From the NCBI GenBank assembly GCA_031279835.1, contig JAITHV010000051.1, positions 1-23,272 on the forward strand: 23,272 nt of DNA, written 5' to 3'. Origin of the DNA: Coriobacteriales bacterium (GTDB lineage Bacteria > Actinomycetota > Coriobacteriia > Coriobacteriales > UBA8131). A program made the position numbers and the translations under genes. The notes beneath the pieces were generated by a model, which saw only the letters and a list, made by a program, of their open reading frames with translations, was not told where the DNA came from and did no database searches. Below, in pieces: positions 5,401-23,272 of the stretch. Numbering within the stretch: the stretch's first letter is position 1; the number at the start of each line of letters is the position of its first letter.

Positions 5401-5416
5401 ATGTGAGGTAATTGTC

Positions 5417-6538: not shown

Positions 6539-6731
6539 CAAGCTCCACAATCTGCCGTGGTCGCAGCCCGTTACTGTCATCCCGGCCTTGAGCCGGGATC
6601 TCGACGTTGCTTCTCGACGAGCAGGGCACGCTCAGTGCCTGGCCAGCTTGACCTGTTCACGATATACTGTCCAGCATGCCACAACAGACAAGCGGCGCTA
6701 AGGCGGGTCCATCACAGGCGAGGCGGTGTTG

Positions 6732-9700: not shown

Positions 9701-9911
9701 GCGCCACCCGGGGTCTGCCGAGATGCCCGTGCTGGCATTTGAGCTCGACGGGCGCGAGCACTTCGACGAGGCGACTGTCAAACAACGGGATGAGGAGAAA
9801 AACGCCCTCTGCCGTGCCTATGGGCTTAAGCTTGTCCGCGTCGACAACACCTATGCCCGCCGTTACGCGTACCTCAAAGACCTGCTGCTTGCATGGCTTG
9901 ACGTCTCATAG
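6732..9911 (+). CDS. Large orphan protein: unknown ~380-aa N-terminal domain + SF1B Upf1-like helicase (AAA_11/AAA_12) + C-terminal DUF2726/PD-(D/E)xK-like endonuclease-fold domain, ~1060 aa
   Basis: Helicase motifs: Walker A VQGPPGTGKTKT; motif II IIDEASQC; motif III LVGDPQQLSPI; motif IV YRCDADII; motif V HSFQGDEKDVVLLSL; motif VI INVATTRARRELVLV. The C-terminus GRFDFVVYERHPGSAEMPVLAFELDGREHFDEATVKQRDEEKNALCRAYGLKLVRV matches the DUF2726 pattern (rvDFvl...iElDG..H...RD...G..lvRv). I prefer the ATG at 6732, which has GAGG 9 nt upstream; GTG 6726 is an alternative. Confidence 0.8.
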   Translation: MYVQDVVRAVFRAIHEGKWLDVVYCNRFGERTHFWAEITAVDPAQMTFRASGLHLSTHSLTEGMTLHAHKIAAATVIEGTWCTVNDELVADMARDAPRYEPLFGQVANMRVLNYYEDCHRLDADPYCMAYELLRGLDADSFSDRRCALTNEQFSGLMGDLLREVPGRPMHEGTPLRLRSLAMNALSVNTDKGLYVLAYRRLQLDVKSRELVMEESPTICWKFILEKNTADKTHKPVRLVRGIDLFLDHDEQSLLLDFNANAELIKDCITAASRRLSSRSHTARPPEMIGPYKVDDLPYVMVVGRDSSVNLAHEYSGILQQYNTAVSATPSAPTPAAQGAPATPIRAFFGELLKQPPAQRDPLPLVVLDNQAGLDQLRAIHSALNNPLTYVQGPPGTGKTKTIVNTVISAFCNNLSVLVSSYNNLPVKNVTDALLSRVFQSQPIHFPVLRIGNPHVLAESLDRVAKSLKAVRLADASPAPQGPAPLSPSSMPLEPNSSLLELLRRHEELVDLLERRDAVMQMLDSISDFKLHMDLQALQLNDINARIAAIGAIEDADAAAFLGTSSGPLEEYLFHESLRRYRLLDEPPFQEFAAIFLQENSNNRNRAFNRWISDDDNLALSLKVFPVVASTCLSASRLASPRPCFDLAIIDEASQCKAAESLIPVVRAHRLMLVGDPQQLSPITQLNESDNAALRMKYAVPKEYDYARNSVYQVFLACDSVSDEILLKDHYRCDADIIGFSNKKYYGGRLVVKTPPSTGTSLHFIDVRDNETVGKNTAPAEVNAVISYAQKNPHKNIGVITPFKNQRLLLDAAITNHRLTNVSCGTVHSFQGDEKDVVLLSLALTRQTHKATYEWLCNNRELINVATTRARRELVLVASRADIERLHEHRSDDDLLELMHYVTQRGNTEVTSRTARSRALGIKPYSTATEEAFLTSIGHAISTLSSSGRRHSVKREVPISHVFTSNSGTSADAETHRGLFYSGRFDFVVYERHPGSAEMPVLAFELDGREHFDEATVKQRDEEKNALCRAYGLKLVRVDNTYARRYAYLKDLLLAWLDVS

Positions 9912-9946: not shown

Positions 9947-10729
9947 TCACTGTGGGCCGTTGACCCGCACCAGGTCAGCGACGCTGACCGTCGCGTTACG
10001 GTAGCGCTCGCTGTTCTTCTCGCCTTTCACATGGATGGCGCGCGACGGGCAGGTGTGCGCACAAGAAAGACACGCGGCACAGGAGCTGCCAAAGTAGGGC
10101 CGTCCCTCGTGGCGCACTATGTTGCGCATGGGGCAGACAAGCTCGCATGTGCCGCACTCGTTGCAGCGACCGTCCACCGTGAGGTGCCGTTCAAAACCGC
10201 TGAGTTGCCGCGTTGCGACTCGCCACATGACTCCACGAAGGGGCGCTAGCCCGGCCGTCTTTCCGACGTTTTGCGTGCTTGCCTCAACTTCCGAGGCAAC
10301 AAGGGCGACGTCAGCGGCAAGCTTAGCCTCGGTGAAACGCTGGCGCTGCCGGGCCATGTCAAAAAGGGGCAGGTAATTGTCCGGCATGGTCAAGGTCGCG
10401 AAGTAGGAGAGACAAAAACCACCCTTTCGCGCAAAGTATAGCATTTGGGCCTTGACGGCAAGAGACAGGTTGCCGCGTGTGCTGATAACGAAGACATACG
10501 GGCTTTTTAGGCGCGTTCTCGCAAAGAACTCGGCGATGAGCGGCGGGGTAGTGAACCAATAGGTCGGGAACACGATTCCTATCTTGCTGTCGCTGACCTC
10601 GATCTCTCTGAAGCCTTTCGCGGAGTTCTCTCGTAAGAAGACCGGGATAGACACCAGCTCCCCGCCAGTACCGACCGCCCGTGCCACCTGCAGGCAGTTT
10701 CCCGTCCCCGTAAAATAGAAAGTCCTCAT
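9947..10729 (-). CDS. EFR1-type flavodoxin-like domain fused to 2x[4Fe-4S] ferredoxin domain protein, ~260 aa
   Basis: The N-terminus MRTFYFTGTGNCLQVA is a flavodoxin-like start. The C-terminus carries two CxxCxxCxxxCP motifs (CNECGTCELVCP and CAACLSCAHTCP). I prefer the internal ATG at 10729 with an AAGGG RBS. Confidence 0.7.
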   Translation of the reverse strand: MRTFYFTGTGNCLQVARAVGTGGELVSIPVFLRENSAKGFREIEVSDSKIGIVFPTYWFTTPPLIAEFFARTRLKSPYVFVISTRGNLSLAVKAQMLYFARKGGFCLSYFATLTMPDNYLPLFDMARQRQRFTEAKLAADVALVASEVEASTQNVGKTAGLAPLRGVMWRVATRQLSGFERHLTVDGRCNECGTCELVCPMRNIVRHEGRPYFGSSCAACLSCAHTCPSRAIHVKGEKNSERYRNATVSVADLVRVNGPQ

Positions 10730-10990
10730 AAAACACCCTTTCTGCGCGGCAAGAACCTCACCGTGGGCAGGCAGCAGACCTGCTAAAGGCAATGATAGTC
10801 TAGCCACCCAAGAGGCACAAGTGCAGGCTGTCGCAGGGTGTGGCCAGCCACATTCTGCAGTAGAGGCACCCAGGCGCGCAGCACAGTAATTAGCGTAAGA
10901 AAGTTCTAAAACAGTGCGGTAATTTGCAAGATTCTTCCCTAGGATTGCCTTAAAGTTAGCATCAAGAGGCTAGCGGTATGGGCGAAGCAG

Positions 10991-11006
10991 GTTGAGTGCG
11001 CTCAAC
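10991..11006. promoter_or_regulatory. 16-bp palindrome GTTGAGTGCGCTCAAC (6-bp arms), a candidate operator ~90 bp upstream of the AcsE-like gene
   Basis: Read directly. It lies in the 290-bp divergent intergenic region between the EFR1-like and AcsE-like genes. Confidence 0.3.
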
Positions 11007-11096
11007 AGTCGGTTTGCCTGGCGGTCTAGCTTTGGGCGCAGGAAAACGACCAAAAAAGGCACACAAGGTGTCAGGTCAGTCTAAGAAGGAGCGAAC

Positions 11097-11900
11097 ATGA
11101 TTATCATCGGTGAAAAAATCAACGGCTTTATCCCCAAGACGTTGGCGGCAATCGAGGCTCGCGATGATGCGTACATCATCGAGATCACCAAGGGCCAGGC
11201 TGCAGGCGGCGCGACCTACATCGACATCTGTGCCGGCACGGCGCCTGATGTTGAGCGCGAGACCATGGAGTGGCTCATCGACCTCGTGCAGAGCAACACC
11301 GACACCCCTATTTCTCTGGACAGCTCTGACCCGCAGGTCATCATCGACATGATGCCCCGCGTCAAGAAGCCCGGTCTTATCAACTCGATCTCTCTTGAGG
11401 CCGGCAAGTGCGAGACGGTTCTTCCTGCCATCGCCAACACCGACTGGAAAGTCGTTGCGCTGACTTGCGACAGCAACGGTATTCCCGATGACCCCAAAGT
11501 GAAGTTCGATATCGCCAAGAAGATCATCGAGCAGGCCAATGAGCTCGGGATCAAGAACGACCGGCTCTTTATCGACCCACTGGTCACCACGCTTGCCACC
11601 AAGCAGGACTCCCTGATCAGCTTCAACGAGGCGATCCGCCTCATCAAGGCCGCGTATCCTGATGTGAACATCACCTCGGGACTCTCGAACATATCCTTTG
11701 GCATGCCGTTCCGCAAGGCGATCAACATGCAGTTCCTCGCCCTGACGATGGCTGCCGGCATGAACAGCGCTATCATGGACCCGATGTCGCAGGACATGCA
11801 GGCGACGATGCATGCGGTCAACGCCCTGCTGGGCAACGACGAGTACTGCGTCGAGTATCTCGGTGCCTTCCGCGAGGGACTGTTCGGCGCCACAAAATAA
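11097..11900 (+). CDS. Pterin-binding methyltransferase of the AcsE/MtrH family (methyl-corrinoid:tetrahydrofolate methyltransferase, MT-II), 267 aa
   Basis: [11 protein letters not shown]...GLSNISFG...[20 protein letters not shown]...[15 protein letters not shown] aligns closely with the AcsE pattern (IIGERING..., GLSNVS..., LINRTFLAMAMA.GLD.AI.D, LLN...YC). An AAGGAG RBS sits 6 nt upstream of the ATG. Confidence 0.85.
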
Positions 11901-11910
11901 ACGACCTCTT

Positions 11911-11952
11911 GACCGGCACACGCTTGAAGCGTGTGCCGGTCATTCTTATTGT
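11911..11952 (+). terminator. Strong intrinsic terminator (13-bp perfect stem GACCGGCACACGC/GCGTGTGCCGGTC, 5-nt loop, T-rich tail ATTCTTATTGT)
   Basis: Read directly, 11 nt after the AcsE-like stop codon. It lies inside the track ORF 11909..12544, so the folE start must be downstream of it. Confidence 0.75.
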
Positions 11953-11974
11953 CAACAGACGACCGGGGCGGGCA

Positions 11975-12544
11975 ATGAATCGCGAGAAGATTGAACAGGG
12001 TGTACGACTCATTCTTGAAGGCGTTGGCGAGGATCCTTCTCGTGAAGGGCTGCTCGACACGCCATCACGTGTCGCCTCTATGTACGAAGAGGTCTTGGCG
12101 GGCATGGAGCAAGATCCTGCGCCGCTGTTCAGCAAGAGCTTTGACGAAGGTCATGGCGAGCTGGTTTTGGTCAAAGACATCCCGCTCTACTCGATTTGCG
12201 AGCACCATATGGTGCCGTTCCTTGGAGTGGCGCACGTAGGGTATATCCCTGGTAAAGACGGTCGCGTGTGCGGCCTTTCAAAGATCATCCGCCTGGTTGA
12301 GGTGTACTCGAGGCGCCTGCAAGTACAAGAGCGCCTGACTTCTCAGATCGCTGAGACCTTAGTTAACGAGCTTGCCCCGAGGGGCGTCATAGTGGTCATT
12401 GAAGCCGAGCACCTCTGCATTTCGATGCGAGGCGTTCGCAAGCCTGGCACAAAAACGGTCACTTCTGCCGTTAGGGGGGTTTTCGGCGCCTCTGAGCGCT
12501 CGCGTGCAGAGGCACTCTCGTTGGTCTATGGTAAAAGCAAATAA
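11975..12544 (+). CDS. folE: GTP cyclohydrolase I (FolE), ~189 aa
   Basis: Motifs [33 protein letters not shown] and [10 protein letters not shown] are diagnostic of type I GTP cyclohydrolase. The start is placed after the terminator hairpin at the first in-frame ATG (MNREKIEQG...). Confidence 0.88.
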
Positions 12545-12692
12545 GCCCACACATTCTCGTTGATTGTCGGTATACTAGAGCTGTTGGGACACGAGCTCTA
12601 CCTAAAGTGTTTACTATACGAGACGGCATCTATCCAGTATGTCGACGAAGCCACGAGTCACTGCCGATCATCCGCTATTAGGAGGTTGATGA

Positions 12693-13943
12693 GTGAGGTT
12701 CGACACGCTCAACGACTATTCTCTGATTACTGGTATGGGAATCAGGGTGGTGGACGCTGATGGAGCTGAGCTTTTTGCCACGTCCCAGTTCGAGATTGTC
12801 CGCAAGGCGCTGAGCTATCTCGACGGGGTTTTCGGCTCACAAGAGAGCAGTCTTGAAGTCGAGGCAAGAAGCCGTGACCTTGCGCTCGTCATGGGTGGAG
12901 GCTTTTACGTCTACTTGTGTCCACGTGGCCTCATGTTTGGGATTGTGCCGTTCGCACGCAGCGGCAGGTGTCAGCGCTTCGTCATAGGCGGTCCGCTTAT
13001 ACTGTCGAATATTTATGACTATGTAGATTTTGAGATCATTCCACAGGCAGCCTCTGGCATTGACCGATACGAGGCATTGCGTTGGGTATCATGTATTCCT
13101 GTCAAAGACCCCCGAATAGCCTCAGCGGTGTTTGAGCACCTTTTTGTGAGTACGGCGTTTATCAACGGCACGAACACGCAGCTTGTCTCGCTTCTCGACG
13201 GCGAGGACATTTACAGTGACGATGACCCGTATGACAAGGCGGCAGGCATCGAGAAGCTGAGGTTTGAGACCCACTTGTACGACAACGAGAGCGAGGTCGT
13301 TGCGCAAAAGACCTTGCTTGAGACGCTTTGGGTCTCTGAAGACATACAGATCCGCTCGCTTTTTAATGAGATAAAGGGCCAGATACTCTTCCATCCCCGC
13401 AACAACCTCGACCTGCTCAAGGCCAAGTCGATGGACCTTATCTCTGTGCTCGCAGAATCAGCTATGCATAACGGGGCAGAGACGAAGATCCTCCTTCAGA
13501 TGCGCAACCGCGCCTTATTGGAGATCGACGAGCTTGAAAGCCTTGACGAGATCGTCGTGTGGCTCAATAAAATATACGAGTTGTTCACCTCGCATGTCTT
13601 CAACAATCCCAACTCACGCTACACTGAGGCAATCCGGAAGTCCCTCGCGTTTATGATGGACCATTATCAAGACAAGATCACGCTCAACGACGTTGCGGCA
13701 CACGTCTCGTTCTCTCCGACGTACCTGTCTAGCCTGTTCAAAAACGAGGTCGGCCAGACCTTTAAGAGTTGTCTCAACCGCATACGCATCGAGCAAAGCA
13801 AGCTGCTTATATCCGACTGGAACCTCACGATAGCCGAGGTCAGCTGTCAGGTCGGGTTCACTGACCAGAGTTATTTTGCCAAGGTCTTCAAGCAGTATGA
13901 AGGCGTGACACCGTATTTATACCGTCTCACCTGCAAGCAATGA
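12693..13943 (+). CDS. AraC/XylS-family transcriptional regulator with a ~300-aa N-terminal sensor region, 416 aa, GTG start
   Basis: The C-terminal dual HTH LNDVAAHVSFSPTYLSSLFKNEVGQTFKSCLNRIRIEQSKLL...IAEVSCQVGFTDQSYFAKVFKQYEGVTPYLYR is the AraC signature. An AGGAGG RBS sits 11 nt upstream of the GTG. Confidence 0.8.
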   Translation: MRFDTLNDYSLITGMGIRVVDADGAELFATSQFEIVRKALSYLDGVFGSQESSLEVEARSRDLALVMGGGFYVYLCPRGLMFGIVPFARSGRCQRFVIGGPLILSNIYDYVDFEIIPQAASGIDRYEALRWVSCIPVKDPRIASAVFEHLFVSTAFINGTNTQLVSLLDGEDIYSDDDPYDKAAGIEKLRFETHLYDNESEVVAQKTLLETLWVSEDIQIRSLFNEIKGQILFHPRNNLDLLKAKSMDLISVLAESAMHNGAETKILLQMRNRALLEIDELESLDEIVVWLNKIYELFTSHVFNNPNSRYTEAIRKSLAFMMDHYQDKITLNDVAAHVSFSPTYLSSLFKNEVGQTFKSCLNRIRIEQSKLLISDWNLTIAEVSCQVGFTDQSYFAKVFKQYEGVTPYLYRLTCKQ

Positions 13944-14096
13944 CGCCTCCTCTTTCGTAGCATAGCCGCATTGATTTGCAGCTCTTTTTACCAATTCACC
14001 CTGAATAAGTACAAGAAATGCCGCATCGGCTTGACGTACAATCAGCGTAATGCTTGGGCGCATGATGTCGTTTCAATACAAAGGAGATGGCAAACT

Positions 14097-15488
14097 ATGG
14101 TAAAGAAGAGCTTTACAGAAACTGCTTACAAGAATGTAGACGATTTTGTTTATGGTAAGTCAATCTACCCCGTCACGACCAAGCGTGGTCTTGTGGTCGG
14201 CGGCGGCACCCTGTATCCCGAGGTCAACTTCACCCTCCCCACCATGCTCATTACCGATGAGACCATGCCCGAGGTCCTGAGCATCTACAAGGAGATCATC
14301 ACCGGTATAGCCCAGCGTGCCGTCGAGCTTGAGGTCGAAGGCTTCTCCGCTGAGTGCGAGTGGCTGCCCGGCATGACGTTCGAGCCCGAGCGCGGCATCC
14401 AGGTCATGCGCATCCTCGAGGATGTTGTTGAGGAGTACTATCAGAAGTATGGCATCAAGGGTGCCGTACGCTCCACGCCTGTTGACATCCGTGAAGGCAA
14501 GGGTGTCGATCACATGTGGCATGGCGCCGCGTGGGACAAAGTAGTCAGGTCCTTCGAGGGCAGCGCCGAAATCGGCAACGACTTCCTGTCAATCGAGTCC
14601 ATCGGTGGCAAGGACGTCCACGACGAAGGGCTCATGTACTGCGATATCGAGAAGGTCATCTTCGGTGTTGGCGTTCTCGGCGCAAAGGACATGGAAGTGC
14701 TGTGGGAAATGATCGCCAAGGTCGCCGGCAAGTATCCTGGCGTTACCGCCGCTGGCGACACTGCATGCGGTTTTGCGAACACCGCCATGGTTCTTGCTGA
14801 GCAGGGCTACATCCCGCGTGTTCTTGGCGCGACTGCCCGCGTAATCGCTGCGGTGCGCACGATGGTTGCCAACGAGCAGGGCGCAACCGGTCCCGACAAG
14901 GACTGCGGCTATGAAGGTGTCATCATCAAGGCCATCACGGGTATGCCTGTCACGATGGAAGGCCGCATGGCTGCCGTCGCACACCTCTCGCGGGTGGGCA
15001 ACATCGCTCTGTGCTGCGCCGACCTCTGGAGCAACGAGTCCATTCAGCACATCAAGCTCCTCGGTGGCTATGCTGAGGTTGTTTCGGTCGAGCAGCTCGC
15101 TTATGACTGCCGCCTGCTGAATTGTGCGCGTGAGCGTGACGAGAAGACTGCGTTGCTTATGCGTGACCTGCTTGCAAACAGCGACAGCTGGCGTGACCCG
15201 CACGCATACATTCTGCGTCCGGATGTCGCTCTCAAGATCGCGACTGCTATCGTCTCTGAGAAGGACGATCACTATCTGCGTTCGGTCAAGGCTGCCGCGA
15301 CTGCTCTTGCAGTCATCCGCGAGGGCTATGATAAAAAAGAGCTCAAGCTTGAAGACCGCGAGCTCAGCTACCTTGACTCTCTCTCTGAGACTGTTGCTGC
15401 AATGCCGAAAGACGAGGGTTCCTTCATTGAGCAGCAGGTCGCTGCCAACACGAATCCGAAGTTCGATCCCAAGATGTACGACCTGTAG
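14097..15488 (+). CDS. MtaB-family substrate:corrinoid methyltransferase (MT-I; methanol:corrinoid methyltransferase-like), ~463 aa
   Basis: The N-terminus MVKKSFTETAYKNVDDFVYGKSIYPVTTKRGLVVGGGTLYPEVNFTLP resembles the MtaB N-terminus (…YTSMAY…FG.S.YPV…G…IPEINF…). Its size and its position next to the corrinoid protein and activator fit. An AAAGGAG RBS sits 10 nt upstream of the ATG at 14097; the track ORF starts earlier at 13971. Confidence 0.7.
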   Translation: MVKKSFTETAYKNVDDFVYGKSIYPVTTKRGLVVGGGTLYPEVNFTLPTMLITDETMPEVLSIYKEIITGIAQRAVELEVEGFSAECEWLPGMTFEPERGIQVMRILEDVVEEYYQKYGIKGAVRSTPVDIREGKGVDHMWHGAAWDKVVRSFEGSAEIGNDFLSIESIGGKDVHDEGLMYCDIEKVIFGVGVLGAKDMEVLWEMIAKVAGKYPGVTAAGDTACGFANTAMVLAEQGYIPRVLGATARVIAAVRTMVANEQGATGPDKDCGYEGVIIKAITGMPVTMEGRMAAVAHLSRVGNIALCCADLWSNESIQHIKLLGGYAEVVSVEQLAYDCRLLNCARERDEKTALLMRDLLANSDSWRDPHAYILRPDVALKIATAIVSEKDDHYLRSVKAAATALAVIREGYDKKELKLEDRELSYLDSLSETVAAMPKDEGSFIEQQVAANTNPKFDPKMYDL

Positions 15489-15519
15489 GTCGCGTCTTGC
15501 CATTAGTCCATACGGGGAC

Positions 15520-15581
15520 GCTTCGTTCAAGTTGTCCAGCACCTTGCAAGAGGTGCTGGACAACAGCACGTTAAACGAAGC
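15520..15581 (+). other. Long U-less RNA hairpin (13-bp perfect stem GTTGTCCAGCACC/GGTGCTGGACAAC, 8-nt loop, plus an outer 8-bp stem GCTTCGTT/AACGAAGC) 32 nt after the MT-I stop
   Basis: Read directly. There is no T-tract, so it is an I-shaped terminator, processing site or stability element. Confidence 0.55.
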
Positions 15582-15634
15582 TCTGTCAACTGGCGATGAA
15601 TGCAAGACAGCTTCTTGTAGAGGTCGGGAAGCTG

Positions 15635-15713
15635 CCTAAAACAACTAAAGAAAACCCTAAAACAACGTAAGAATTCACAAGATTTTGTGACACCCAAACC
15701 TTAAGATTAATTA
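15635..15713 (+). promoter_or_regulatory. Candidate promoter/operator block upstream of the corrinoid-protein gene: an 11-bp direct repeat CCTAAAACAAC x2 spaced 21 bp, the palindrome TCACAAGATTTTGTGA, -35 TTGTGA and -10 TAATTA 17 bp apart
   Basis: Read directly. The region is AT-rich, unlike the rest of the window. The direct repeats with 21-bp phasing lie immediately upstream of the putative -35. Confidence 0.3.
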
Positions 15714-15892
15714 GGTTCGAGACGAAGGTCTATGTTCCACACAGACTTTTGCTGACAGACTTCAGCTCAGCGACGCCCAAGCATTAGAGACGAATCTGTT
15801 AGCTTGTCAAGGGACCTCCGTATGGCTCGCGCTAATGTCTATAGTGCGAAAAAATTCCATGAACCGCATCAAACAGTTACATAGAGAGGAGC

Positions 15893-16534
15893 ATGGTCGT
15901 GAGTATTTTTGATGAGATTTCCGAACTAGTGCAAAAAGGTAAGGTAAAGGATATCGCCGGCGCGGTAAAGGGTGCGCTCGACGGGGGCGCCTCTGCACAG
16001 CAGATCCTCGACGATGGCCTGTTGGCCGGTATGGCGATCCTTGGTGAGAAGTTCAAGAACAACGAAGTGTTCGTTCCTGAGGTTCTTCTTGCCGCCAAGG
16101 CCCTTAACGAAGGCACTGCGCTCTTGAAGGAGAAGCTGGTCGCCGAGGATGTCAAGCCTCTCGGCAAGGTCGTTATCGGTACGGTTGAGGGCGACCTGCA
16201 CGATATCGGCAAGAACCTGGTCAAGCTGATGATGGAGGGTATCGGCTTTGAGGTATTTGACCTGGGCGCCGATGTGTCTGCTGATGAGATTGTTGCTGCT
16301 GTTAAGGAGAACAACGCAGACATCGTTGCTCTCTCTGCCCTTTTGACCACCACGATGGGTCAGCAGGGTGTTGTCGTCAAGGCGCTTGAGGCTGCCGGTC
16401 TGCGCGATCAGGTCAAGGTTATGGTCGGTGGCGCGCCCATCACGGAGAAGTTCTGCAAGGACATCGGTGCAGACTGCTACACGGTCGACGCTGCTGCTGC
16501 AGCTGAGGCGGCAAAGTCGTTGGTCGGAGCGTAG
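15893..16534 (+). CDS. Cobalamin-binding corrinoid protein (MtaC/MtbC-like; B12-binding-2 helical cap + Rossmann B12-binding domain), 213 aa
   Basis: The DxHxxG B12 motif GDLHDIGKN is present, followed by the canonical VALSALLTTTM and MVGGAPIT segments. A GAGGAG RBS sits 5 nt upstream of the ATG. Confidence 0.88.
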   Translation: MVVSIFDEISELVQKGKVKDIAGAVKGALDGGASAQQILDDGLLAGMAILGEKFKNNEVFVPEVLLAAKALNEGTALLKEKLVAEDVKPLGKVVIGTVEGDLHDIGKNLVKLMMEGIGFEVFDLGADVSADEIVAAVKENNADIVALSALLTTTMGQQGVVVKALEAAGLRDQVKVMVGGAPITEKFCKDIGADCYTVDAAAAAEAAKSLVGA

Positions 16535-16575
16535 TCTGTAACTAAGCACCAGCATATCCAAACACGACTTTATAT

Positions 16576-16614
16576 GATGCAGCTCCAAATCTAGAATTGG
16601 TTTGGAGCTGCATC
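16576..16614 (+). other. U-less perfect 14-bp hairpin (GATGCAGCTCCAAA / TTTGGAGCTGCATC, 11-nt loop) between the corrinoid-protein gene and the activator gene
   Basis: Read directly, 42 nt after the corrinoid-protein stop. The track ORF start at 16597 (TTG) lies inside the hairpin arm and is rejected. Confidence 0.55.
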
Positions 16615-16632
16615 GTTCAGAAAGGCGGCAAC

Positions 16633-18561
16633 ATGCCTAGTGACGTCACTGTCGCATTCACCATGACGGGCAGCAAGGAGGTGAAGAGCACTGTTCCTGT
16701 CGGCTCTTCACTGCTTGATATAGCCAAAGACCTCGGTATTCCTCTCGACGCGCCTTGTTCCGGAAACATGACCTGCGGAAAATGCAAGGTAAAAGTCATT
16801 TCGGGGAAAACCGAAGGGAAGCGTACCCGCTATGTTTCTGAAGAGGCATATGAGCAGGGGTGGCGTCTGGCATGTGCAGTTGATGTGTCAGCCGATCTGG
16901 TTGTTGAAGTTCCTGATTCAGCATCGGCATATCGGACGGGCATTAAGGTCGACGAACTAGGCGATACTGCTCGCGGCATGTCGTTCGCAAAATTGAAGAC
17001 AGATCTTCTTGAACGAGGGTTTAGCGTGGGCGGCACCGTGATCACAACCGTATTGGAACTTGTTGCGCCAACGAACGATGACCCTGAAGCAGACAAAGAG
17101 CGCTTGGTGCGCGCCCTCGCAAAGGCTCGGGGTGTCAATGAGCGCGATGTGAGGCTGAGCCTTGGCGCTATGCGAGCGCTGCCGCATGCGATACGAGAGT
17201 CGGAGTACCGACCGTTTCTGGTTATTGAGCAGACTGACAATGGCGGTCTGCTCGTCATTGACATCTGTGCGCAGCCTCAACAGCCCCTGGGACTGGCTAT
17301 AGACATTGGAACCACAACGGTTTCGGCATTGCTCTCGGATCTCGATACCGGCGATGTGCTCGCAGCTGGCACGGCGGGAAATGGGCAGATTCGATTTGGT
17401 GCTGATGTCATCAACCGTTTGGTTGAGTCGGACCGTCCTGGTGGACTTGTGCGCTTAAGAAAGGCAATCGTTGATGAGTGCATCGCGCCTTTGGTCAAGT
17501 CGCTATGCGATGCTATTTCCAAAGACGGTGAGTCAATTTACCGGGTAACCGTAGCGGGCAATACGACTATGGCACACCTGTTCATCGGTGTATATGGCAA
17601 TTATTTACGGTTGGACCCGTATATTCCTGCCTTTTTTGAGCTAGATGGGCTGCGAGGTGCGGACCTTGCTATTGGCGTCAACCCCGCTGCCGCTACGATC
17701 ATAGCCCCTGCTGTCGGAAGCTATGTGGGCGGCGACATCACTGCGGGCATATTGGCGTCAGGAATCGCCAAAGGCGACGAGTGGTCTATGCTTATCGACC
17801 TCGGCACGAACGGCGAGATTGTCCTAGGCAGTTCTGAATTCCTCATGGCATGTGCCTGCAGTGCCGGCCCAGCATTTGAAGGCGGCGACATCAGCTGCGG
17901 CATGCGCGCGACTGACGGCGCTATTGAGGCGATCACTATTGACGAGCAGACTATGGAGCCTAAGTGTCTTGTCATTGGAGCTGATGGGCAGCGACCGATA
18001 GGTGTTTGTGGCTCAGGAATCATTGACGCAATCAGCGAGCTTTTCCGCACGGGCATCATCGATGCGCGCGGACGTTTTTTGCGCGAGGGTCCTCGAGTGC
18101 ATGTTGATGAATGGGGAACTACCTCATATACTTTGGCATGGGGCGAGGAGACCGATAGCGGCGAGAAGATTGCTTTGACCGATTCGGACATAGACAACTT
18201 CATCCGCGCAAAAGGATCGGTGTTCTCTGCTATTCGCACCCTGCTGGATGTAGCTGGTTTTTCAATAGATGACATCAGCCATATCAATATTGCAGGCGGG
18301 ATCGGAAACGCCATTGACATCGAACATGCGATTGGAGCTGGCATGCTTCCCTGTCTTCCGCTTGACAGGTACTCATATGTGGGCAACACTTCTTTGGCGG
18401 GCGCGTATTCACTTCTTGTCTCACCAGAGACCAGAAGTGAGCTCTCGGCCTTGACTAGGAGCATAACCTACATCGAACTAAGCACGATAGCAGGCTATAT
18501 GGACGAGTTTATTGCTGCATGCTTTATTCCGCATACCGATGGATCATTGTTTAGTCTATAA
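16633..18561 (+). CDS. RACE-type reductive activator of corrinoid enzymes (N-terminal plant-type [2Fe-2S] ferredoxin + DUF4445/ASKHA ATPase domain, COG3894), ~642 aa
   Basis: The N-terminal Cys pattern CSGNMTCGKCKV...LAC is plant-type 2Fe-2S. The size and the Gly-rich ASKHA-like segments (LAIDIGTTT, LIDLGTNGE, GVCGSGIID) fit. I prefer the ATG at 16633 (MPSDVTVAF). Confidence 0.8.
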   Translation: MPSDVTVAFTMTGSKEVKSTVPVGSSLLDIAKDLGIPLDAPCSGNMTCGKCKVKVISGKTEGKRTRYVSEEAYEQGWRLACAVDVSADLVVEVPDSASAYRTGIKVDELGDTARGMSFAKLKTDLLERGFSVGGTVITTVLELVAPTNDDPEADKERLVRALAKARGVNERDVRLSLGAMRALPHAIRESEYRPFLVIEQTDNGGLLVIDICAQPQQPLGLAIDIGTTTVSALLSDLDTGDVLAAGTAGNGQIRFGADVINRLVESDRPGGLVRLRKAIVDECIAPLVKSLCDAISKDGESIYRVTVAGNTTMAHLFIGVYGNYLRLDPYIPAFFELDGLRGADLAIGVNPAAATIIAPAVGSYVGGDITAGILASGIAKGDEWSMLIDLGTNGEIVLGSSEFLMACACSAGPAFEGGDISCGMRATDGAIEAITIDEQTMEPKCLVIGADGQRPIGVCGSGIIDAISELFRTGIIDARGRFLREGPRVHVDEWGTTSYTLAWGEETDSGEKIALTDSDIDNFIRAKGSVFSAIRTLLDVAGFSIDDISHINIAGGIGNAIDIEHAIGAGMLPCLPLDRYSYVGNTSLAGAYSLLVSPETRSELSALTRSITYIELSTIAGYMDEFIAACFIPHTDGSLFSL

Positions 18562-18655
18562 GGTCTCTCATGTTCCCTCGACGTGCACTGGCGTGGCGCT
18601 TGGCACAAGTCCGTGCAAAGCCACAGCGCAAAGAGTCATAGGATAGGAAGAAGCA

Positions 18656-19312
18656 ATGTCACAGGCACAAATCGGTTTATCAACCAACAACCTTACGCAA
18701 CGCCCACTCGACCATTATGGGAGCTGCTACCGCAAGCTTGATCCAGAGGAAGTGGCGGCGCGTACGGGATTGCAGTTTAATCGGGAAGGCTCTTCGTTCG
18801 GACTGGTTCTCATGGGCTCGCCATGCCACGCTGCTTATCCGGACTACTCGCTCAGTGATGAGTCCGGAGAGCCAGTTGCCTCGGCCTACGAGTCGATACT
18901 TATACTGCGGTTTCTCTGTGAGGGGCGCTTTGTTTCTGCCACAGGAACTGAGCTGACATACAAAGAACTTCCCTGGGGCATCACTTATGACACAAATTTC
19001 GAGCATCGCGTCAAGCGGCGTCTTCTGCGCGAGTTTGCAAAAGACCTTGCGTTGTTCGCGCAGCTCATGGAGACAAACAAGGGGTTAAAGGCACAGCCGC
19101 TCGAAAAATGCGACTGTGGGTATCGTTTTGAGTTCATGGGTGGGCTTCCAGTCAGCATTAGGTTTTGGGCGGCAGATGAGGAGTTTCCCGCATCGGTCCA
19201 GGTTCTTTTTGATGAGAGCTTCCAGTTTGCCTTTTCTGCAGAAGACGTTGCTGTTGTAGGTGACACAATCATAAACAGACTGATAGGCATGCGTGCCCAA
19301 GCTTTACCGTGA
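18656..19312 (+). CDS. DUF3786-family protein (uncharacterised protein associated with corrinoid methyltransferase operons), 218 aa
   Basis: A 218-aa soluble protein with Cys residues (CYRKL, CHAAY, CDCGYRFEF). I place it in DUF3786 from memory of that family's size and context. It lies between the activator and the regulator. Confidence 0.55.
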   Translation: MSQAQIGLSTNNLTQRPLDHYGSCYRKLDPEEVAARTGLQFNREGSSFGLVLMGSPCHAAYPDYSLSDESGEPVASAYESILILRFLCEGRFVSATGTELTYKELPWGITYDTNFEHRVKRRLLREFAKDLALFAQLMETNKGLKAQPLEKCDCGYRFEFMGGLPVSIRFWAADEEFPASVQVLFDESFQFAFSAEDVAVVGDTIINRLIGMRAQALP

Positions 19313-19339
19313 CGCTCGTTAACAGACAGGCAGGCAACC

Positions 19340-20860
19340 ATGAAGATTAGCGCAGAGATGCTTGCTGAAGGATTAAGTAAGTCGTTTACTATCAACGTCG
19401 TTGGACCGTTGAGCATGCTTCCGACCATTGGGAGTCTCTTGCTTGTTGGCCCCGACACAGTTTGGCAGGACGGAAAAACCTACTTGGTCGAAAGCCCTGG
19501 AGTAGACCAAGTACCAGCGACGCATATCGATTCGGTGGTTCTCATCGTGGGCGCATTTCCTGAGGTCTTGCCAGGGCGGTTTCAGTCTGCCTTGATTTTT
19601 GATGAAGAGACAACTCTCTTCGAGGTACATAACCGCATCCAAGACATTTTCGCCGAATACAATATGTGGGAGGCTGAGATCCACCGCATGCTCAGCGGCG
19701 GCTCTGATGTCCAGTCCATGCTCGACATCAGCGCCGGTCATTTTGGCAACCCGCTCATACTGTTCGACAGTAACTACAAAGTGATAGCCAGCTCAAAAGG
19801 ATACAGCGCCGATGAGCGCATGGCACCGGTCTTTGACTGCCTGCGTCTGCCTTTTTTGATGCGATCAAATCAAGATGACGCCTATCGGGGCGGTCATCGA
19901 GGCAGTAACCAGGCAGGTCATGCCAGAGCATTGTATATCAACGACATGCGTGCTTATTCTGTCAGTTATATGCAACAAGCCTTTACCTATCAGCTCGTAT
20001 TGGTCGAACTCGATAAGGGGCTGAGTGCCTCTGATGTTTTTCTGCTTGAGCACCTTGCTGAGTTTGTCTACCTTGCCATCGGCTTTGTCCCAGGCTATAT
20101 TCAGGCTGAATCAGGGCTTCAGAGCACACTCAAGCTTTGTGTCAGCGGTGAGTTGACAAGCACGACTTCTATCACAAAGCGGCTTGCGCGCTATGGATGG
20201 CTTCCAACCCACCAATACGTGTGCCTGAAGTTTGCTTTCGAGATACATGAGCAGCGAAACCGCACATTACGCTTCAAAGAGGAACGTTTCACCGAGACCC
20301 TCGGAGAGCACAGTGTGTTTGAGCACGGCGATAGCATTGTTGCGTTCGTTAACCTCGACCTTCATGACGGTGGCGACAATGGGTTCGAAGGTATTCTCAT
20401 GAGCTACCTGCAGGACAACCTCGCCAAAGCGGGGATGAGCAATCGCTTTACCGGATTTGAGGACTTGGACCTGTATTACAGGCAGGCTGAATTGGCGTTG
20501 TCATACGGGCAGCGACTCAACCCCTATCTAGACCTGTTCCGTTTTGCGGGGATAGTCAAGCCGCATCTTCTGGCATGCTGCACGAACAAGCTTCCTGCCC
20601 ATATGGTATGCTCGCCCGGACTAATCGCACTCCAGCGCCATGACGCTGAACACGGTACATGCCTCTATCGCACACTTCAAGTGTTTATTAAATGCCGCTT
20701 CAGTTATGCTAACTCAGCAAAAGAGCTTTTTATACATCGCAGCACGTTCATGCATCGACTCCAAAGGATAAAAAAAGTCAGCGGCATTGATGTTATGAAC
20801 ACCGACGAGCTCTGGCATATACTTCTTTCCTTCGAGCTGCTCGAATACGAGCTTCCTTGA
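19340..20860 (+). CDS. PucR/CdaR-family transcriptional regulator (C-terminal PucR HTH), 506 aa
   Basis: The C-terminus LYRTLQVFIKCRFSYANSAKELFIHRSTFMHRLQRIKKVSGIDVMNTDE is a PucR-type HTH (HTH_30). The N-terminal ~350 aa is a putative ligand-binding region. Confidence 0.75.
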   Translation: MKISAEMLAEGLSKSFTINVVGPLSMLPTIGSLLLVGPDTVWQDGKTYLVESPGVDQVPATHIDSVVLIVGAFPEVLPGRFQSALIFDEETTLFEVHNRIQDIFAEYNMWEAEIHRMLSGGSDVQSMLDISAGHFGNPLILFDSNYKVIASSKGYSADERMAPVFDCLRLPFLMRSNQDDAYRGGHRGSNQAGHARALYINDMRAYSVSYMQQAFTYQLVLVELDKGLSASDVFLLEHLAEFVYLAIGFVPGYIQAESGLQSTLKLCVSGELTSTTSITKRLARYGWLPTHQYVCLKFAFEIHEQRNRTLRFKEERFTETLGEHSVFEHGDSIVAFVNLDLHDGGDNGFEGILMSYLQDNLAKAGMSNRFTGFEDLDLYYRQAELALSYGQRLNPYLDLFRFAGIVKPHLLACCTNKLPAHMVCSPGLIALQRHDAEHGTCLYRTLQVFIKCRFSYANSAKELFIHRSTFMHRLQRIKKVSGIDVMNTDELWHILLSFELLEYELP

Positions 20861-20889
20861 GCTTGCGAAAAAACGCCGAAGCACTGCCA

Positions 20890-21081
20890 CTAAGCGGTTT
20901 TTATCACTAGGCTGTTTTTGATGAAATCGACCCGCTTGATTTTACCAATGACTTCAGTCTTCTCCCCAAGCAGGTCATAGAGGACGACACTGTCGCCCTC
21001 TATGCTCACCGAAGTGACATTCTTGGTTATCAGGGCATCTTGCTTGCCGTCGACAGTCACATAAGCGCTCGAGAGGCACAT
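20890..21081 (-). CDS. cooT: CooT-family small nickel-binding CODH accessory protein, 63 aa
   Basis: The 63-aa size and the N-terminal Met-Cys (Cys2 is the Ni ligand in CooT) fit. The C-terminal RVDFIKNSLVIK resembles R. rubrum CooT RVDLRSGVISLIE. An AAGGAGG RBS is embedded in the upstream gene and the gap is 3 nt. Confidence 0.65.
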   Translation of the reverse strand: MCLSSAYVTVDGKQDALITKNVTSVSIEGDSVVLYDLLGEKTEVIGKIKRVDFIKNSLVIKTA

Positions 21082-21084
21082 CGA

Positions 21085-21408
21085 TTATCCCTCCTTTGCA
21101 GACTTAAGGGCTGCCGCAAGGAGCTCGTTTCCTGCGTTGAAACGCTCTGCCCCCTCGCGGATAAGACGTGCTGTCTCGGTCAGTCCAGCATGCTCCAAGT
21201 CATGGGCCACATCGTACAATTCGCTGGTATGCTGCGCATTGTGGTCGACCATATAGCCAAGGAGAGCGATGGCGCTTTGTGGCTGAGTGCCACCATGCAA
21301 GTGCGCATGGGTATGGCTTATGCCATCACCATGGCTATGCTCATGAGAATGAATATGACCCTCATGGGCTGTGGCGTCATGAGCGCTGTTATCGAGGTTA
21401 TCGTGCAT
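21085..21408 (-). CDS. Histidine-rich putative nickel metallochaperone (CooJ-like function; 16 His in 107 aa, 12 in the first 38 residues) with a helical C-terminal domain
   Basis: The translation begins MHDNLDNSAHDATAHEGHIHSHEHSHGDGISHTHAHLHGG... and is followed by a helical C-terminal region. It is directly coupled to cooT and divergent from cooC-cooS. I prefer the ATG at 21408 over the TTG at 21426. Confidence 0.6.
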   Translation of the reverse strand: MHDNLDNSAHDATAHEGHIHSHEHSHGDGISHTHAHLHGGTQPQSAIALLGYMVDHNAQHTSELYDVAHDLEHAGLTETARLIREGAERFNAGNELLAAALKSAKEG

Positions 21409-21565
21409 AATTATCCTGCCTTTCAAGGAAAATGAGCAAAACTAACACTCGATTGCCGACGGCGTGCCAACCATTTTCAAGACCGCCGTACAGGCAATCG
21501 TCTACATAGAGTTTATTATCCCTTAGCGTCGCTGTTTCTGTCTAGCTGCGTCTATTAAGATAGGG

Positions 21566-21582
21566 TCCTACAAAATGTAGGA
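21566..21582. promoter_or_regulatory. Perfect 7-3-7 palindrome TCCTACA-AAA-TGTAGGA, a candidate operator in the divergent cooT/cooC control region
   Basis: Read directly. Confidence 0.35.
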
Positions 21583-21668
21583 AGCATGTATGAGAACATC
21601 CATAATTTGGTCGTATTGAGCAGAAGAAATCAAGCCTATAGGATAAATAGTGACGATATTTCATTTCT

Positions 21669-21709
21669 CATTGTCTGGGCAGGTCATATCCAAGTCAGTG
21701 TCTGGGCAA
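21669..21709. promoter_or_regulatory. Direct repeat CA(T/G)TGTCTGGGCA x2 spaced 27 bp, 40-75 bp upstream of the preferred cooC GTG start
   Basis: Read directly (cattgtctgggcagg ... cagtgtctgggcaac). The surrounding 160 bp is AT-richer than coding DNA. Confidence 0.3.
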
Positions 21710-21744
21710 CCGAAAGTATTGAAATTCTATTCCGGGAGGCGTTT

Positions 21745-22515
21745 GTGGCGTACACTATTGCCATAGCGGGAAAGGGCGGCACAGGGAAAACTACCCTTGC
21801 TGGACTTCTGGTCGACTATCTAGTCAAGCAAAAAGCTACACCCATCCTCGTTGTAGATGCCGACGCCAACTCTAACCTCAATGAGGTGCTGGGCGTCAAA
21901 GTAGACATGACATTAGGGGACCTACGCGAGACGATAGTCGGCTCAGAGTTTCAGGACGTCAATCCGATACCTGCTAGCATGTCCAAGCAAGATTACGTGT
22001 CTGCGCATTTCAGCAGGACTCTCATTGAAGAAAGCGGCTACGACCTGATAGTCATGGGGCGCACACAGGGCAAGGGCTGCTATTGTTTTGTCAATGACCT
22101 GCTCACTAATCAGATAAACCGCTACGCTGGCAGCTATCGCTACCTTGTGGTGGACAACGAGGCGGGAATGGAGCACATCAGCCGAGGGACTCTGCCATCA
22201 GTTGACTTGGTCTTACTCGTCTCTGACAGCTCTCGGCGGGGCATTCAGGCTGCAGCTCGCATAAAGGACCTCGTCAACGAACTTGCCCTTGCGCCTCGTG
22301 CTATGAAGCTCATCGTAAACAGGGCACCTGGCGACGAACTCGATCCTGGCACCGTTGAAGAGATCGAGGCGCATGATTTTGATGTCGCTGGCATCGTGCC
22401 CAATGACTCGCTTATTTACGAATACGACTGTCAAGGCAGACCGACAGTGCAGCTCCCCGAAGACTCAAAAGCGCGGATTGCTTTTGAGTCTATTATGTCG
22501 GGCATTATTACGTGA
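21745..22515 (+). CDS. cooC: CooC/AcsF-type nickel-insertion ATPase (MinD/ParA superfamily) for CODH maturation, ~256 aa, GTG start
   Basis: A deviant Walker A IAIAGKGGTGKTT is present. The CxC nickel-binding motif of CooC appears as GKGCYCF. A GGGAGG RBS sits 5 nt before the GTG at 21745. The track ATG at 21586 would add a 53-aa AT-rich extension absent from CooC proteins. Confidence 0.8.
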   Translation: MAYTIAIAGKGGTGKTTLAGLLVDYLVKQKATPILVVDADANSNLNEVLGVKVDMTLGDLRETIVGSEFQDVNPIPASMSKQDYVSAHFSRTLIEESGYDLIVMGRTQGKGCYCFVNDLLTNQINRYAGSYRYLVVDNEAGMEHISRGTLPSVDLVLLVSDSSRRGIQAAARIKDLVNELALAPRAMKLIVNRAPGDELDPGTVEEIEAHDFDVAGIVPNDSLIYEYDCQGRPTVQLPEDSKARIAFESIMSGIIT

Positions 22516-22583
22516 TTGACCGGAAACGCCGATAACAATACCGAAACGACAGTCTCAGACAGTCAAAGGCAGAAAGGAGAGGC

Positions 22584-23272
22584 ATGAAACCGGAATTGAA
22601 TTTCACGACAGTCGAGCAGATGGAGGCAGACGCAACTAAGCTCCACAGCCTCGGGTGTGAGAGCTGTGGTGCAGAAACCTGGGCAGACCGCGAGGTCAAG
22701 CAGCGGCCTCACTGCAAGTTTGGCGAGGACGGAATATGCTGTAGGGTCTGTTCTATGGGTCCCTGTCGTATTACCGCAAAGGCTGATCGAGGCATATGCG
22801 GTGCCGACGCGCACACCATTGCCGGGCGCCATTACCTAAGAATGGCTGCTGCAGGATCTGCGGCACACTCCGATCATGCGCGAGAGATTGCGCATACCTT
22901 GCTTGCCACCAAGCCAGAAGGACCGTATGTCGTTCGTGACGTGGAGAAGCTGAAGAAGCTTGCCGAGGAGTGGGGAGTGGAGTTCGAGGGGCGCGACGTT
23001 TACGATGTGGCGCATGATGTGGCGCTCATCGGTCTTGAGGAGTTCGGTAAGCCATTCGGCACTCTTCGCTACCTCTCGCGCGCCACTGCCGAGCGTCAAA
23101 AGCTTTGGGCTGACGAGGAGCTCGCACCACGTTCAATTGACAGGGAGATATCAACCGCGCTGCACATGACGCACATGGGCAACACTGCTGACGCCGAGGT
23201 TCTTGTGCGTCACAGCATGCGTGTTGGGTTGGCCGATGGTTGGGGCGGCTCGATGATCGGCACCGAATTCAC
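22584..23272 (+). CDS. cooS: Anaerobic Ni,Fe carbon-monoxide dehydrogenase catalytic subunit CooS/AcsA (N-terminal part; truncated by window end)
   Basis: Translated by hand: MKPELNFTTVEQMEADATKLHSLGCESCGAETWADREVKQRPHCKFGEDGICCRVCSMGPCRITAKADRGICGADAHTIAGRHYLRMAAAGSAAHSDHAREIAHTLL... The CxFGxxGxCCRxCxxGPCRI block (the D- and B-cluster cysteines) is diagnostic of CooS. An AAAGGAGAGG RBS ends 2 nt upstream of the ATG. Confidence 0.9.
   Translation, partial: MKPELNFTTVEQMEADATKLHSLGCESCGAETWADREVKQRPHCKFGEDGICCRVCSMGPCRITAKADRGICGADAHTIAGRHYLRMAAAGSAAHSDHAREIAHTLLATKPEGPYVVRDVEKLKKLAEEWGVEFEGRDVYDVAHDVALIGLEEFGKPFGTLRYLSRATAERQKLWADEELAPRSIDREISTALHMTHMGNTADAEVLVRHSMRVGLADGWGGSMIGTEF

Follow-up and report, generated by a model that had tools for sequence, protein, structure and literature searches.

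A probable methanol methyltransferase module abutting the head of an acs (CODH/ACS) cluster in a termite-gut member of the Coriobacteriales

Which methyl donor feeds the corrinoid-dependent methyl transfer genes of an uncultured member of the Coriobacteriales, and how many of the genes in that run belong together? The genes lie in a stretch of 23,272 nucleotides (the window) that makes up the whole of contig JAITHV010000051.1, part of a termite-gut metagenome-assembled genome (MAG; GCA_031279835.1). The original prediction, made from the sequence alone, read positions 11097-20860 as a complete four-component module for methyl transfer to tetrahydrofolate (THF), made up of a substrate:corrinoid methyltransferase (MT-I), a corrinoid protein, a methylcorrinoid:THF methyltransferase (MT-II) and a reductive activator, with folE, two regulators and a DUF3786 gene embedded in it. 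Our analysis divides the genes differently: the window probably carries a methanol module (MT-II / folE-mtaR-mtaB / mtaC) that abuts the head of an acs cluster, which encodes carbon monoxide dehydrogenase/acetyl-CoA synthase (CODH/ACS). This kind of system is already known; the novelty is in the host lineage and the habitat, and the mechanism is unsurprising.

All nine gene calls between 11097 and 20860 (9/9) were present and intact, in the predicted order and on the forward strand, as judged from open reading frames (ORFs), Pfam and NCBIfam. Start codons were revised for three genes (folE, ATG at 11975; mtaB, ATG at 14097; the activator gene, ATG at 16633). An MT-I, a corrinoid protein, an MT-II and an ATP-dependent reductive activator were each identified with Pfam and NCBIfam, in support of corrinoid-dependent methyl transfer from a substrate to THF, and folE and both regulators were located between or after the module genes. 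The predicted CODH genes downstream were found as CooT, a His-rich protein, CooC and the N-terminus of a Ni-CODH. The description of the genome as high in GC needs tempering, as the window is moderately high in GC (55.7%) but not very high. We compared gene neighborhoods with those of 80 GTDB mtaB loci (L001-L080), of metagenome loci retrieved with DUF3786 (L087-L171) and of further relatives, including L172, a contig of a termite-gut Coriobacteriales MAG (GCA_031290175.1). The closest relatives came mostly from termite-gut metagenomes and MAGs.

The original prediction held that the native methyl donor could not be inferred, but methanol is indicated by the family of the MT-I, its zinc ligands and the type of regulator beside it. 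MtaB was the sole methyltransferase family matched by the MT-I in Pfam, and the match to PF12176 was full-length (cut-off of 25 bits, profile positions 2-460 of 460). The protein also aligned with MtaB of Methanosarcina barkeri (2I2X_A) with an E value of 7e-89 and 38% identity across 437 aa. The zinc ligands of the M. barkeri enzyme are reportedly Glu164, Cys220 and Cys269 (Hagemeier et al. 2006). Residues 164, 220 and 269 of 2I2X_A are E, C and C, and they align with E167, C224 and C270 of the window protein, so that the Glu/Cys/Cys set is conserved in full. None of these three residues varies among the 19 homologues sampled, and about 100 further MtaB positions are invariant in the family sample. 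Identity is 66-82% within the protein's own clade and 56-62% to other bacterial MtaB; the latter range is not a warning sign because the methanol enzymes demonstrated in Moorella, Acetobacterium and Eubacterium share just 56-57% identity (PMC13391211). In a neighbor-joining tree rooted on the archaeal enzyme, this coherent clade of Coriobacteriia and Actinomycetia MAGs was nested inside bacterial MtaB, confirming the family to which the MT-I had been assigned.

MT-Is that act on methylamines, betaines, thiols or methoxy-aromatics come from other families (the MttB and UroD superfamilies), and to our knowledge all characterized MtaB-family enzymes are methanol-specific. Known MT-Is for other donors likewise fall outside the MtaB family, the newly described chloromethane enzyme CdmB being a member of the UroD superfamily (PMC13222342). 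A new specificity in the MtaB fold, whether for a different small alcohol, for a methyl halide or for a methoxylated compound, seems quite improbable in the face of these assignments, of the invariant positions and of an identity range equal to that among proven methanol enzymes. What can be said for such a specificity is that the clade, at its distance from other bacterial MtaB, is known from sequence alone, that many genomes have several mtaB paralogues, and that PocR domains, one of which occurs in the adjacent regulator, detect assorted small alcohols or diols (PMC13602510). We regard methanol as the well-supported predicted donor because a full-length MtaB with its zinc ligands is encoded directly downstream of an MtaR-type regulator.

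The regulator called as AraC-type ahead of the MT-I was confirmed as a PocR sensor joined to an AraC helix-turn-helix (HTH), and its domain architecture and its position directly upstream of mtaB are those of MtaR in Eubacterium limosum. MtaR was shown in 2026 to activate the E. limosum mta promoter and, according to the same study, the mta operons of methylotrophic acetogens conserve its gene at their head (PMC13602510). Orthologous regulators (49% identical) directly precede mtaB in L081-L086, the gene is found ahead of mtaB in all close relatives, and 35/80 GTDB loci have an mtaR homologue no farther than 10 kb from mtaB. When the regulator-mtaB spacer of the window (13944-14096) was aligned with those of L081 (8167-8442), L083 (9752-10000) and L085 (9751-10000), these four Coriobacteriia loci were found to share TACAAGAAA (at 14010 in the window), a -10 hexamer resembling or matching TACAAT (14037), TGCTTGGGC (14051) and a ribosome binding site (RBS; AAGGAGATG at 14081). 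We propose these conserved motifs as a candidate MtaR operator and promoter. An inverted repeat, ATTTCTT...AAGAAAT, was observed just upstream of the shared motifs in L081, L083 and L085.

The corrinoid protein encoded after mtaB carries the canonical DxHxxG-x41-SxL-GG motif (DLHDIG at residues 101-106, SAL at 148 and GG at 179). None of the substrate-specific NCBIfam corrinoid-protein models reached its cut-off with this protein. A homologue was present in 45 of the 80 GTDB mtaB loci, in many of them 55-66% identical and adjacent to mtaB, and the MtaC adjoining mtaB in L087 is 63% identical. Within the 404-nt spacer that separates mtaB from mtaC, the segment 15489-15610 folds with a free energy of -54 kcal/mol (z -5.2). 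No credible ORF and no Rfam match were found in this spacer, and a hidden small gene was ruled out on the former ground. The hairpin may mark the junction between the mta genes and an mtaC-acsV block, or it may be an mRNA processing or stabilizing element.

The original prediction had also described the MT-II as AcsE-type and its pairing with an MtaB-family MT-I as unusual; neither view could be upheld. The protein scored 67.8 bits against PF00809 and passed PRK07535 (328.3 bits, cut-off of 259) but fell well under the cut-off of the AcsE model NF040758 (127.1 bits against 370). Its best match in the PDB was the MT-II of Desulfitobacterium hafniense (4O0Q/4O1E; 296 bits over residues 1-265), which is far closer than the AcsE/MeTr structures of Carboxydothermus and Moorella (2YCI, 131 bits; 1F6Y, 125 bits), and a GLSNISFG motif is found at residue 195. 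Bacterial MtaA enzymes are themselves pterin-binding, that of acetogens being a methyl-THF:cobalamin methyltransferase of about 29.7 kDa (PMC13602510, PMC13391211), and in 12/79 GTDB loci outside the clade of the window, including Desulfosporosinus, a homologous pterin-type methyltransferase (29-38% identical) is encoded no farther than 10 kb from mtaB. Together these indicate that MtaB with a pterin-binding MT-II is the bacterial norm, and the MT-II of the window is predicted to be a normal bacterial MtaA-type enzyme and not an AcsE orthologue.

The same gene could be read as the acsE of the adjacent CODH/ACS, its product acting from methyl-THF to the corrinoid iron-sulfur protein (CFeSP) and lying near mtaB incidentally. 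Relatives do carry its orthologues (69-76% identical) within their THF methyl-branch or acs gene clusters, just ahead of CooC-CODH-ACS in L087, L172 and L099 and adjoining MTHFR in L083-L086, L173 and L174, and one MT-II can serve more than one system (PMC13391211). We nevertheless consider an AcsE role very improbable, given the scores above and the presence in L172 of both pterin paralogues in one cluster, where the orthologue of the MT-II (76% identical) scores 105 bits against the AcsE model, under its cut-off of 370, and a second pterin protein, encoded after AcsC, reaches 430.5 bits. Returning to an MtaA-type enzyme, the MT-II appears within this clade to belong with the genes of the THF methyl branch. 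In L174 (MtaB 71% identical) the order is MTHFR/DUF5981 - MT-II - FTHFS - ADH - FchA - FolD - FocA - folE - PocR/AraC - mtaB, and L083-L086 have the same order without folE. In L081/L082 (MtaB 82% identical), cobT/U/S/C, which are cobamide lower-ligand genes, are followed by mtaC - MT-II - folE - AraC - mtaB. The intervening methyl-branch genes are absent from both the window and L081, and a terminator-like hairpin is found at the junction.

In the window, the terminator predicted after the MT-II gene was found as a GC-rich hairpin with a U-rich tail, and the segment 11901-11974 folds with a dG of -38.6 kcal/mol (z -5.8 against shuffled sequences). At the corresponding position between the MT-II gene and folE, L081 has a GC-rich hairpin and U-run of different sequence. 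Riboswitches (a THF-II/folE motif or cobalamin) were considered for the spacers and rejected, as Rfam gave no matches at gathering scores; the perfect 15-bp stem also makes the hairpin after the MT-II gene unlike a riboswitch.

GTP cyclohydrolase I, the product of folE, catalyzes the first step of folate synthesis. The window protein scored 279 bits against NF006826 (cut-off of 162). No folE homologue was found at the 80 GTDB mtaB loci when they were searched by tblastn with the window protein (0/80). Within the clade, the order folE - AraC regulator - mtaB is kept in L081/L082 and L174, and L087/L172 have folE - PocR/AraC - AcsV. Because folE-mtaR-mtaB is a conserved trio of the clade and folE travels with the one-carbon (C1) and folate genes of the lineage, we do not regard folE as a random insertion. 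Genes for CobW/COG0523-type GTPases recur beside C1/folate clusters (at the start of L083-L086, at 5429-6055 in L087, 2493-3119 in L172 and 6488-7132 in L173), directly before folE in L087 and L172; the window itself has no cobW. Since FolE (type I) and MtaB are both zinc enzymes, a role of CobW in zinc delivery is conceivable.

We then come to the activator, the DUF3786 protein and the PucR-family regulator, which had been counted as parts of the methyl transfer module. Pfam confirmed the DUF3786 and PucR domains. The activator is a long-form RACo that passes the AcsV model NF040756, aligns over its full length with Carboxydothermus RACo 3ZYY (E 1.5e-126) and has a plant-type [2Fe-2S] cysteine set (Cys 42, 48, 51 and 81). 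It is 46-59% identical to the RACo proteins encoded ahead of DUF3786 in acs clusters and only about 30-35% identical to RACo-type proteins beside mtaB in other genomes. The short activator beside the mta genes of L172 (504 aa) fails the AcsV model at 277 bits.

Gene neighborhoods give the same picture. We found 80 metagenome loci by DUF3786 alignment, of which 48 with at least 2 kb of upstream sequence were informative. A long RACo gene ends within 400 nt upstream of DUF3786 on the same strand in 45 of these 48 (median gap 99 nt), and among the 32 shorter loci, 25 show a RACo fragment upstream. In human-gut loci the gene order is usually CODH-CooC-AcsB-AcsD-(AcsC)-AcsE-AcsV-DUF3786-FTHFS/FolD, a canonical acetogen cluster. 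In L087/L172 the order is PocR/AraC - AcsV (641 aa) - DUF3786 - PucR - CooT (reverse strand) - DUF8180 (reverse strand) - MT-II - CooC - CODH - CooC - AcsB - AcsD - AcsC (- AcsE), with identities to the window proteins of 59% for AcsV, 50% for DUF3786, 49% for PucR, 42-43% for DUF8180, 76% for the MT-II, 73% for CooC and 80% for CODH. The AcsV-to-ACS block also occurs in L099 (a 410-kb contig labelled Clostridiales, with P0247 as its MT-II) and L104, and parts of it in L088, L091 and L101. A PucR-type regulator 36-49% identical to that of the window accompanies RACo-DUF3786 downstream on the same strand in L087, L172, L099, L101 and L104, and upstream and divergent in L088.

The original grouping would make this a self-contained four-component operon, with RACo, DUF3786 and PucR dedicated to methyl transfer and the CODH genes mere neighbors. 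The genes from mtaC to pucR are indeed contiguous and co-directional, the contig has no other activator, and a divergent DUF3786 paralogue lies beside mtaC-mtaB in L087 and beside mtaB in L034. Such an operon is unlikely, however, because RACo-DUF3786-PucR-CooT-His-rich precedes CooC-CODH-ACS in L087, L172, L099 and L104, of which L099 and L104 show no mta gene within the sequence examined, and because the RACo is of the acs type by model and by identity. DUF3786 and PucR homologues were also found at none of the 80 GTDB mtaB loci by tblastn with the window proteins (0/80), and a family hidden Markov model (HMM) detected a distant DUF3786 in 2/80. The claim of a complete module thus stands in part: the three catalytic parts and the MtaR-like regulator form the methanol module, but the activator is of the acs-cluster type by descent and context. 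Family score and conserved synteny place AcsV-DUF3786-PucR, as we read the comparisons, at the head of the acs (CODH/ACS) cluster.

The genes that follow are consistent with this placement. CooT is found at the matching position in L087, L088, L104 and L172, and L087, L104 and L172 each have all three of CooT, the His-rich protein and CooC. The His-rich protein is 43% identical to an L172 protein annotated as PF26551 in precomputed Pfam results; a direct Pfam scan of the window protein gave no match. The maximal cooC ORF begins at 21586, with a likely GTG start at 21745 that is preceded by the RBS GGGAGG, and its product is 73% identical to CooC of L087. With the CODH of L087, which is itself followed by CooC-AcsB-AcsD-AcsC, the CODH fragment shares 80% identity, and synteny in relatives suggests that ACS would lie beyond the end of the contig.

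If the activator belongs to the acs cluster, what keeps MtaC active? No second activator was found on the contig, and the window has neither a short RACo nor a DUF2284 gene. Because acsV immediately follows mtaC and is the sole activator gene of the contig, sharing of AcsV is the most economical reading; AcsV most likely also re-reduces Co(II)-MtaC, and mtaC and acsV are probably in one transcription unit. A further proposal, that DUF3786 is a widely conserved AcsV partner (an adaptor, or a small-molecule sensor talking to PucR) and that one AcsV/DUF3786 pair serves both CFeSP and MtaC in place of the short mta activator, is tentative and in our view somewhat doubtful.

DUF3786 is a large family, with 2,458 representative clusters passing E <= 1e-3 in a profile search and 1,313 passing 1e-10, and its members are almost all stand-alone proteins of 200-230 aa. 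A confident structural model has no fold relative in the PDB; the fold weakly resembles helix-grip/TBP-like domains, and no Cys or His is conserved. Rare fusions join an HTH of the LacI type and a periplasmic-binding-like domain to two DUF3786 domains, or DUF3786 to an ACT domain (P0326, P0278), and in L087/L172 the stop codon of DUF3786 overlaps the start of PucR by 4 nt. From the fusions, the overlap and the weak fold resemblances one may speculate about a ligand-binding, sensing or regulatory role. Our literature search on DUF3786 found nothing relevant.

Several observations weigh against the reading of a methanol module that abuts, and draws on, an acs cluster. The score of AcsV against NF040756 (804.5 bits) clears the cut-off of 800 by a thin margin. 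All close mtaB-bearing relatives encode, no farther than 2 kb from mtaB, a short RACo-type activator of about 505 aa whose Fer2 match is weak and which does not pass the AcsV model; in L081-L087, L172 and L175 it is on the opposite strand, often with a DUF2284 gene. Since the relatives keep this separate short RACo, the activator of MtaC may lie elsewhere in the genome. MtaB scores 439.7 bits against the methanogen equivalog NF040651 (MtaB_Meth), under the cut-off of 720, and its assignment thus rests on the family and not on orthology to a tested enzyme; by this score the window MtaB would not count as orthologous to the archaeal enzymes, in line with its being a bacterial MtaB. The contig ends at residue 229 of CODH, and no ACS, CFeSP or AcsE is seen on it. 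Finally, with strong hairpins downstream of both the MT-II gene and mtaB, three or more transcription units seem likelier than a single operon; the predicted units are MT-II, folE, mtaR-mtaB and mtaC-acsV-DUF3786-pucR.

Taken together, the two adjoining blocks (11097-16534, and 16633 to the end of the contig) would feed carbon from methanol into the Wood-Ljungdahl pathway. The MtaR-like regulator, by its architecture and the conserved spacer motifs, may bind upstream of mtaB and activate the gene when methanol is present. Zinc-dependent MtaB, with its Glu/Cys/Cys ligands, would activate methanol and methylate Co(I) on a His-on MtaC, and the MT-II, judging from its family, would hand the methyl group to THF, with folE supporting folate supply. 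AcsV, which has the domains for ATP-dependent, [2Fe-2S]-mediated reduction, would re-reduce adventitiously oxidized Co(II) on CFeSP and probably on MtaC. Part of the methyl-THF would be oxidized through the reverse methyl branch, and part would be combined with CO to form acetyl-CoA by CODH and the ACS presumed to follow it. CooT, the His-rich protein and CooC, to go by their families, would mature the Ni site of CODH.

Table 1. Coordinates and supporting matches of the features discussed, in window positions.
Feature	Position	Strand	Details
MT-II, predicted methylcorrinoid:THF methyltransferase (bacterial MtaA-type, pterin-binding TIM barrel)	11097..11900	+	267 aa; PF00809, PRK07535
Hairpin with U-rich tail, probable intrinsic terminator	11910..11942	+	15-bp stem, 10 GC pairs, 3-nt loop
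folE, GTP cyclohydrolase I	11975..12544	+	189 aa as in relatives; PF01227, 245 bits
mtaR-like regulator	12693..13943	+	416 aa, GTG start; N-terminal PocR (PF10114), C-terminal AraC HTH (PF00165, PF12833)
mtaR-mtaB spacer, promoter-like elements	13944..14096	+	alignment with orthologous spacers of L081, L083, L085
mtaB, predicted MT-I methanol:corrinoid methyltransferase	14097..15488	+	463 aa; PF12176, 542 bits; sequence identical to P0001
Very stable hairpin in mtaB-mtaC spacer (15489-15892)	15520..15581	+	folding; no U-tract
mtaC, corrinoid protein	15893..16534	+	213 aa; B12-binding_2 (PF02607), B12-binding (PF02310)
acsV/RACo, ATP-dependent corrinoid reductive activator, long form with [2Fe-2S] domain	16633..18561	+	642 aa; Fer2, RACo_linker, Raco_middle, RACo_C_ter
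DUF3786 protein, conserved downstream partner of AcsV	18656..19312	+	218 aa; 151 bits
PucR-family regulator (GGDEF_2 + HTH_30)	19340..20860	+	506 aa; Pfam
cooT, Ni-binding CODH accessory	20890..21081	-	63 aa; PF10133, 64.6 bits
His-rich protein, DUF8180-like, probable Ni-handling accessory	21085..21408	-	107 aa; 13 His within residues 9-38
cooC, CODH Ni-insertion ATPase	21745..22515	+	256 aa; CbiA/AAA_31 P-loop
Ni-CODH catalytic subunit (cooS/acsA), N-terminal 229 aa	22584..23272	+	cut by contig end; PF03063 Prismane, 149 bits

The remainder of the window lies upstream. Divergent from the MT-II gene, at 9947-10807 on the reverse strand, is a gene for an EFR1-family ferredoxin with a flavodoxin-like domain and a pair of [4Fe-4S] motifs (161 bits, cut-off of 75). 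This protein could be an electron donor, but we rejected it as a member of the module as it is not kept near the mta genes of any relative. A superfamily-1 helicase of 1,061 aa (6726-9911, forward strand; AAA_11/AAA_12 with a C-terminal DUF2726) has no relation to the C1 genes and may be a defense or mobile-element protein. Genes for a LytTR DNA-binding protein (144 aa) and then a DUF3021 membrane protein occupy 4966-5872 on the forward strand. The other upstream genes are housekeeping-like (a flavodoxin-like reductase, an SPFH/band-7 protein, a metallo-beta-lactamase fold protein, a TM1586-type nitroreductase and a SAM methyltransferase). A region of about 1.4 kb at 2013-3412 (roughly 60% GC) contains only low-complexity ORFs with no Pfam, tRNA or Rfam match, and is possibly a degraded gene or a non-coding region. 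A tRNA search found no tRNA gene in the window, an Rfam scan of the entire window gave zero matches at gathering scores, and a scan of 10700-22700 returned nothing but a chance miRNA match at E 0.33.

How does the locus compare with characterized systems? In the archaeal methanol system the methyl acceptor is coenzyme M, reached via a UroD-type MtaA. The window shares with M. barkeri MtaBC (2I2X) the fold and family, the zinc ligands and a DxHxxG corrinoid partner, but its MT-II is pterin-binding, with THF as the predicted acceptor, and its MtaB scores below the methanogen cut-off. The MT-II of D. hafniense DCB-2 (4O0Q/4O1E/4O1F), which is attributed to an O-demethylase system, is like the window enzyme a pterin-binding TIM barrel yielding methyl-THF from a methylcorrinoid protein, whereas in the window the adjacent MT-I is MtaB.

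The acetogen MtaABC systems of Acetobacterium woodii, Eubacterium limosum/callanderi, Moorella thermoacetica and Sporomusa ovata resemble the window in MtaB, MtaC and an MT-II of about 29 kDa yielding methyl-THF, and also in an adjoining PocR/AraC regulator and in feeding the Wood-Ljungdahl pathway (PMC13602510, PMC13391211). Their hosts are Bacillota, whereas the host of the window is a termite-gut actinomycetote. Gene order also differs, being mtaR...mtaB-mtaC2-mtaA in acetogens and MT-II / hairpin / folE-mtaR-mtaB / hairpin / mtaC in the window, which in addition embeds folE, lacks the auxiliary genes mtaW/X/Y and runs into the acs head.

The RACo/AcsV of Carboxydothermus hydrogenoformans (3ZYY, 4C1N) has the same four domains as the window AcsV, including the N-terminal [2Fe-2S] domain, and matches it over the full length; unlike in that organism and in the acsV segments of acetogens, acsV of the window directly follows an MtaC-type gene. 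In the A. woodii acs cluster, the hypothetical proteins Orf1 and Orf2 (about 215-220 aa) are encoded after acsV (PMC3315566, PMC6925170). They match the window DUF3786 protein in size and place and may belong to the same family. The coo operon of Rhodospirillum rubrum has a CooC/CooT/CooJ set for nickel insertion, and in the window CooT (PF10133), a small protein rich in His and the CooC ATPase are likewise encoded next to a Ni-CODH gene; the His-rich protein may be CooJ-like. It differs in that its His stretch is N-terminal and the protein is DUF8180-like and not a recognized CooJ, and the cooT and His-rich genes are on the opposite strand.

For annotation, the analysis tells an MT-II paralogue apart from AcsE and an AcsV-type activator from the short mta type. 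It also flags DUF3786 as a constant neighbor of AcsV; AcsV-DUF3786 is an uncharacterized pair that, if the reading is true, possibly serves two corrinoid proteins here. Methanol in termite guts, released from pectin and from the methoxyl groups of lignin, is in most accounts assigned to methyl-reducing methanogens as their substrate, and the literature searched yielded no account of methanol methyltransferases from termite-gut bacteria. Many of the best mtaB genome matches are termite-gut MAGs of very different phyla (Treponema/Spirochaetaceae, Synergistaceae, Oscillospiraceae and Propionibacteriaceae), which suggests that bacterial methanol methyltransferases are widespread in this habitat. 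The window adds a Coriobacteriales representative from the termite gut, with several related termite-gut MAG contigs alike, to the organisms that probably channel methanol into the Wood-Ljungdahl pathway, and methylotrophic acetogenesis in termite-gut Actinomycetota is possible.

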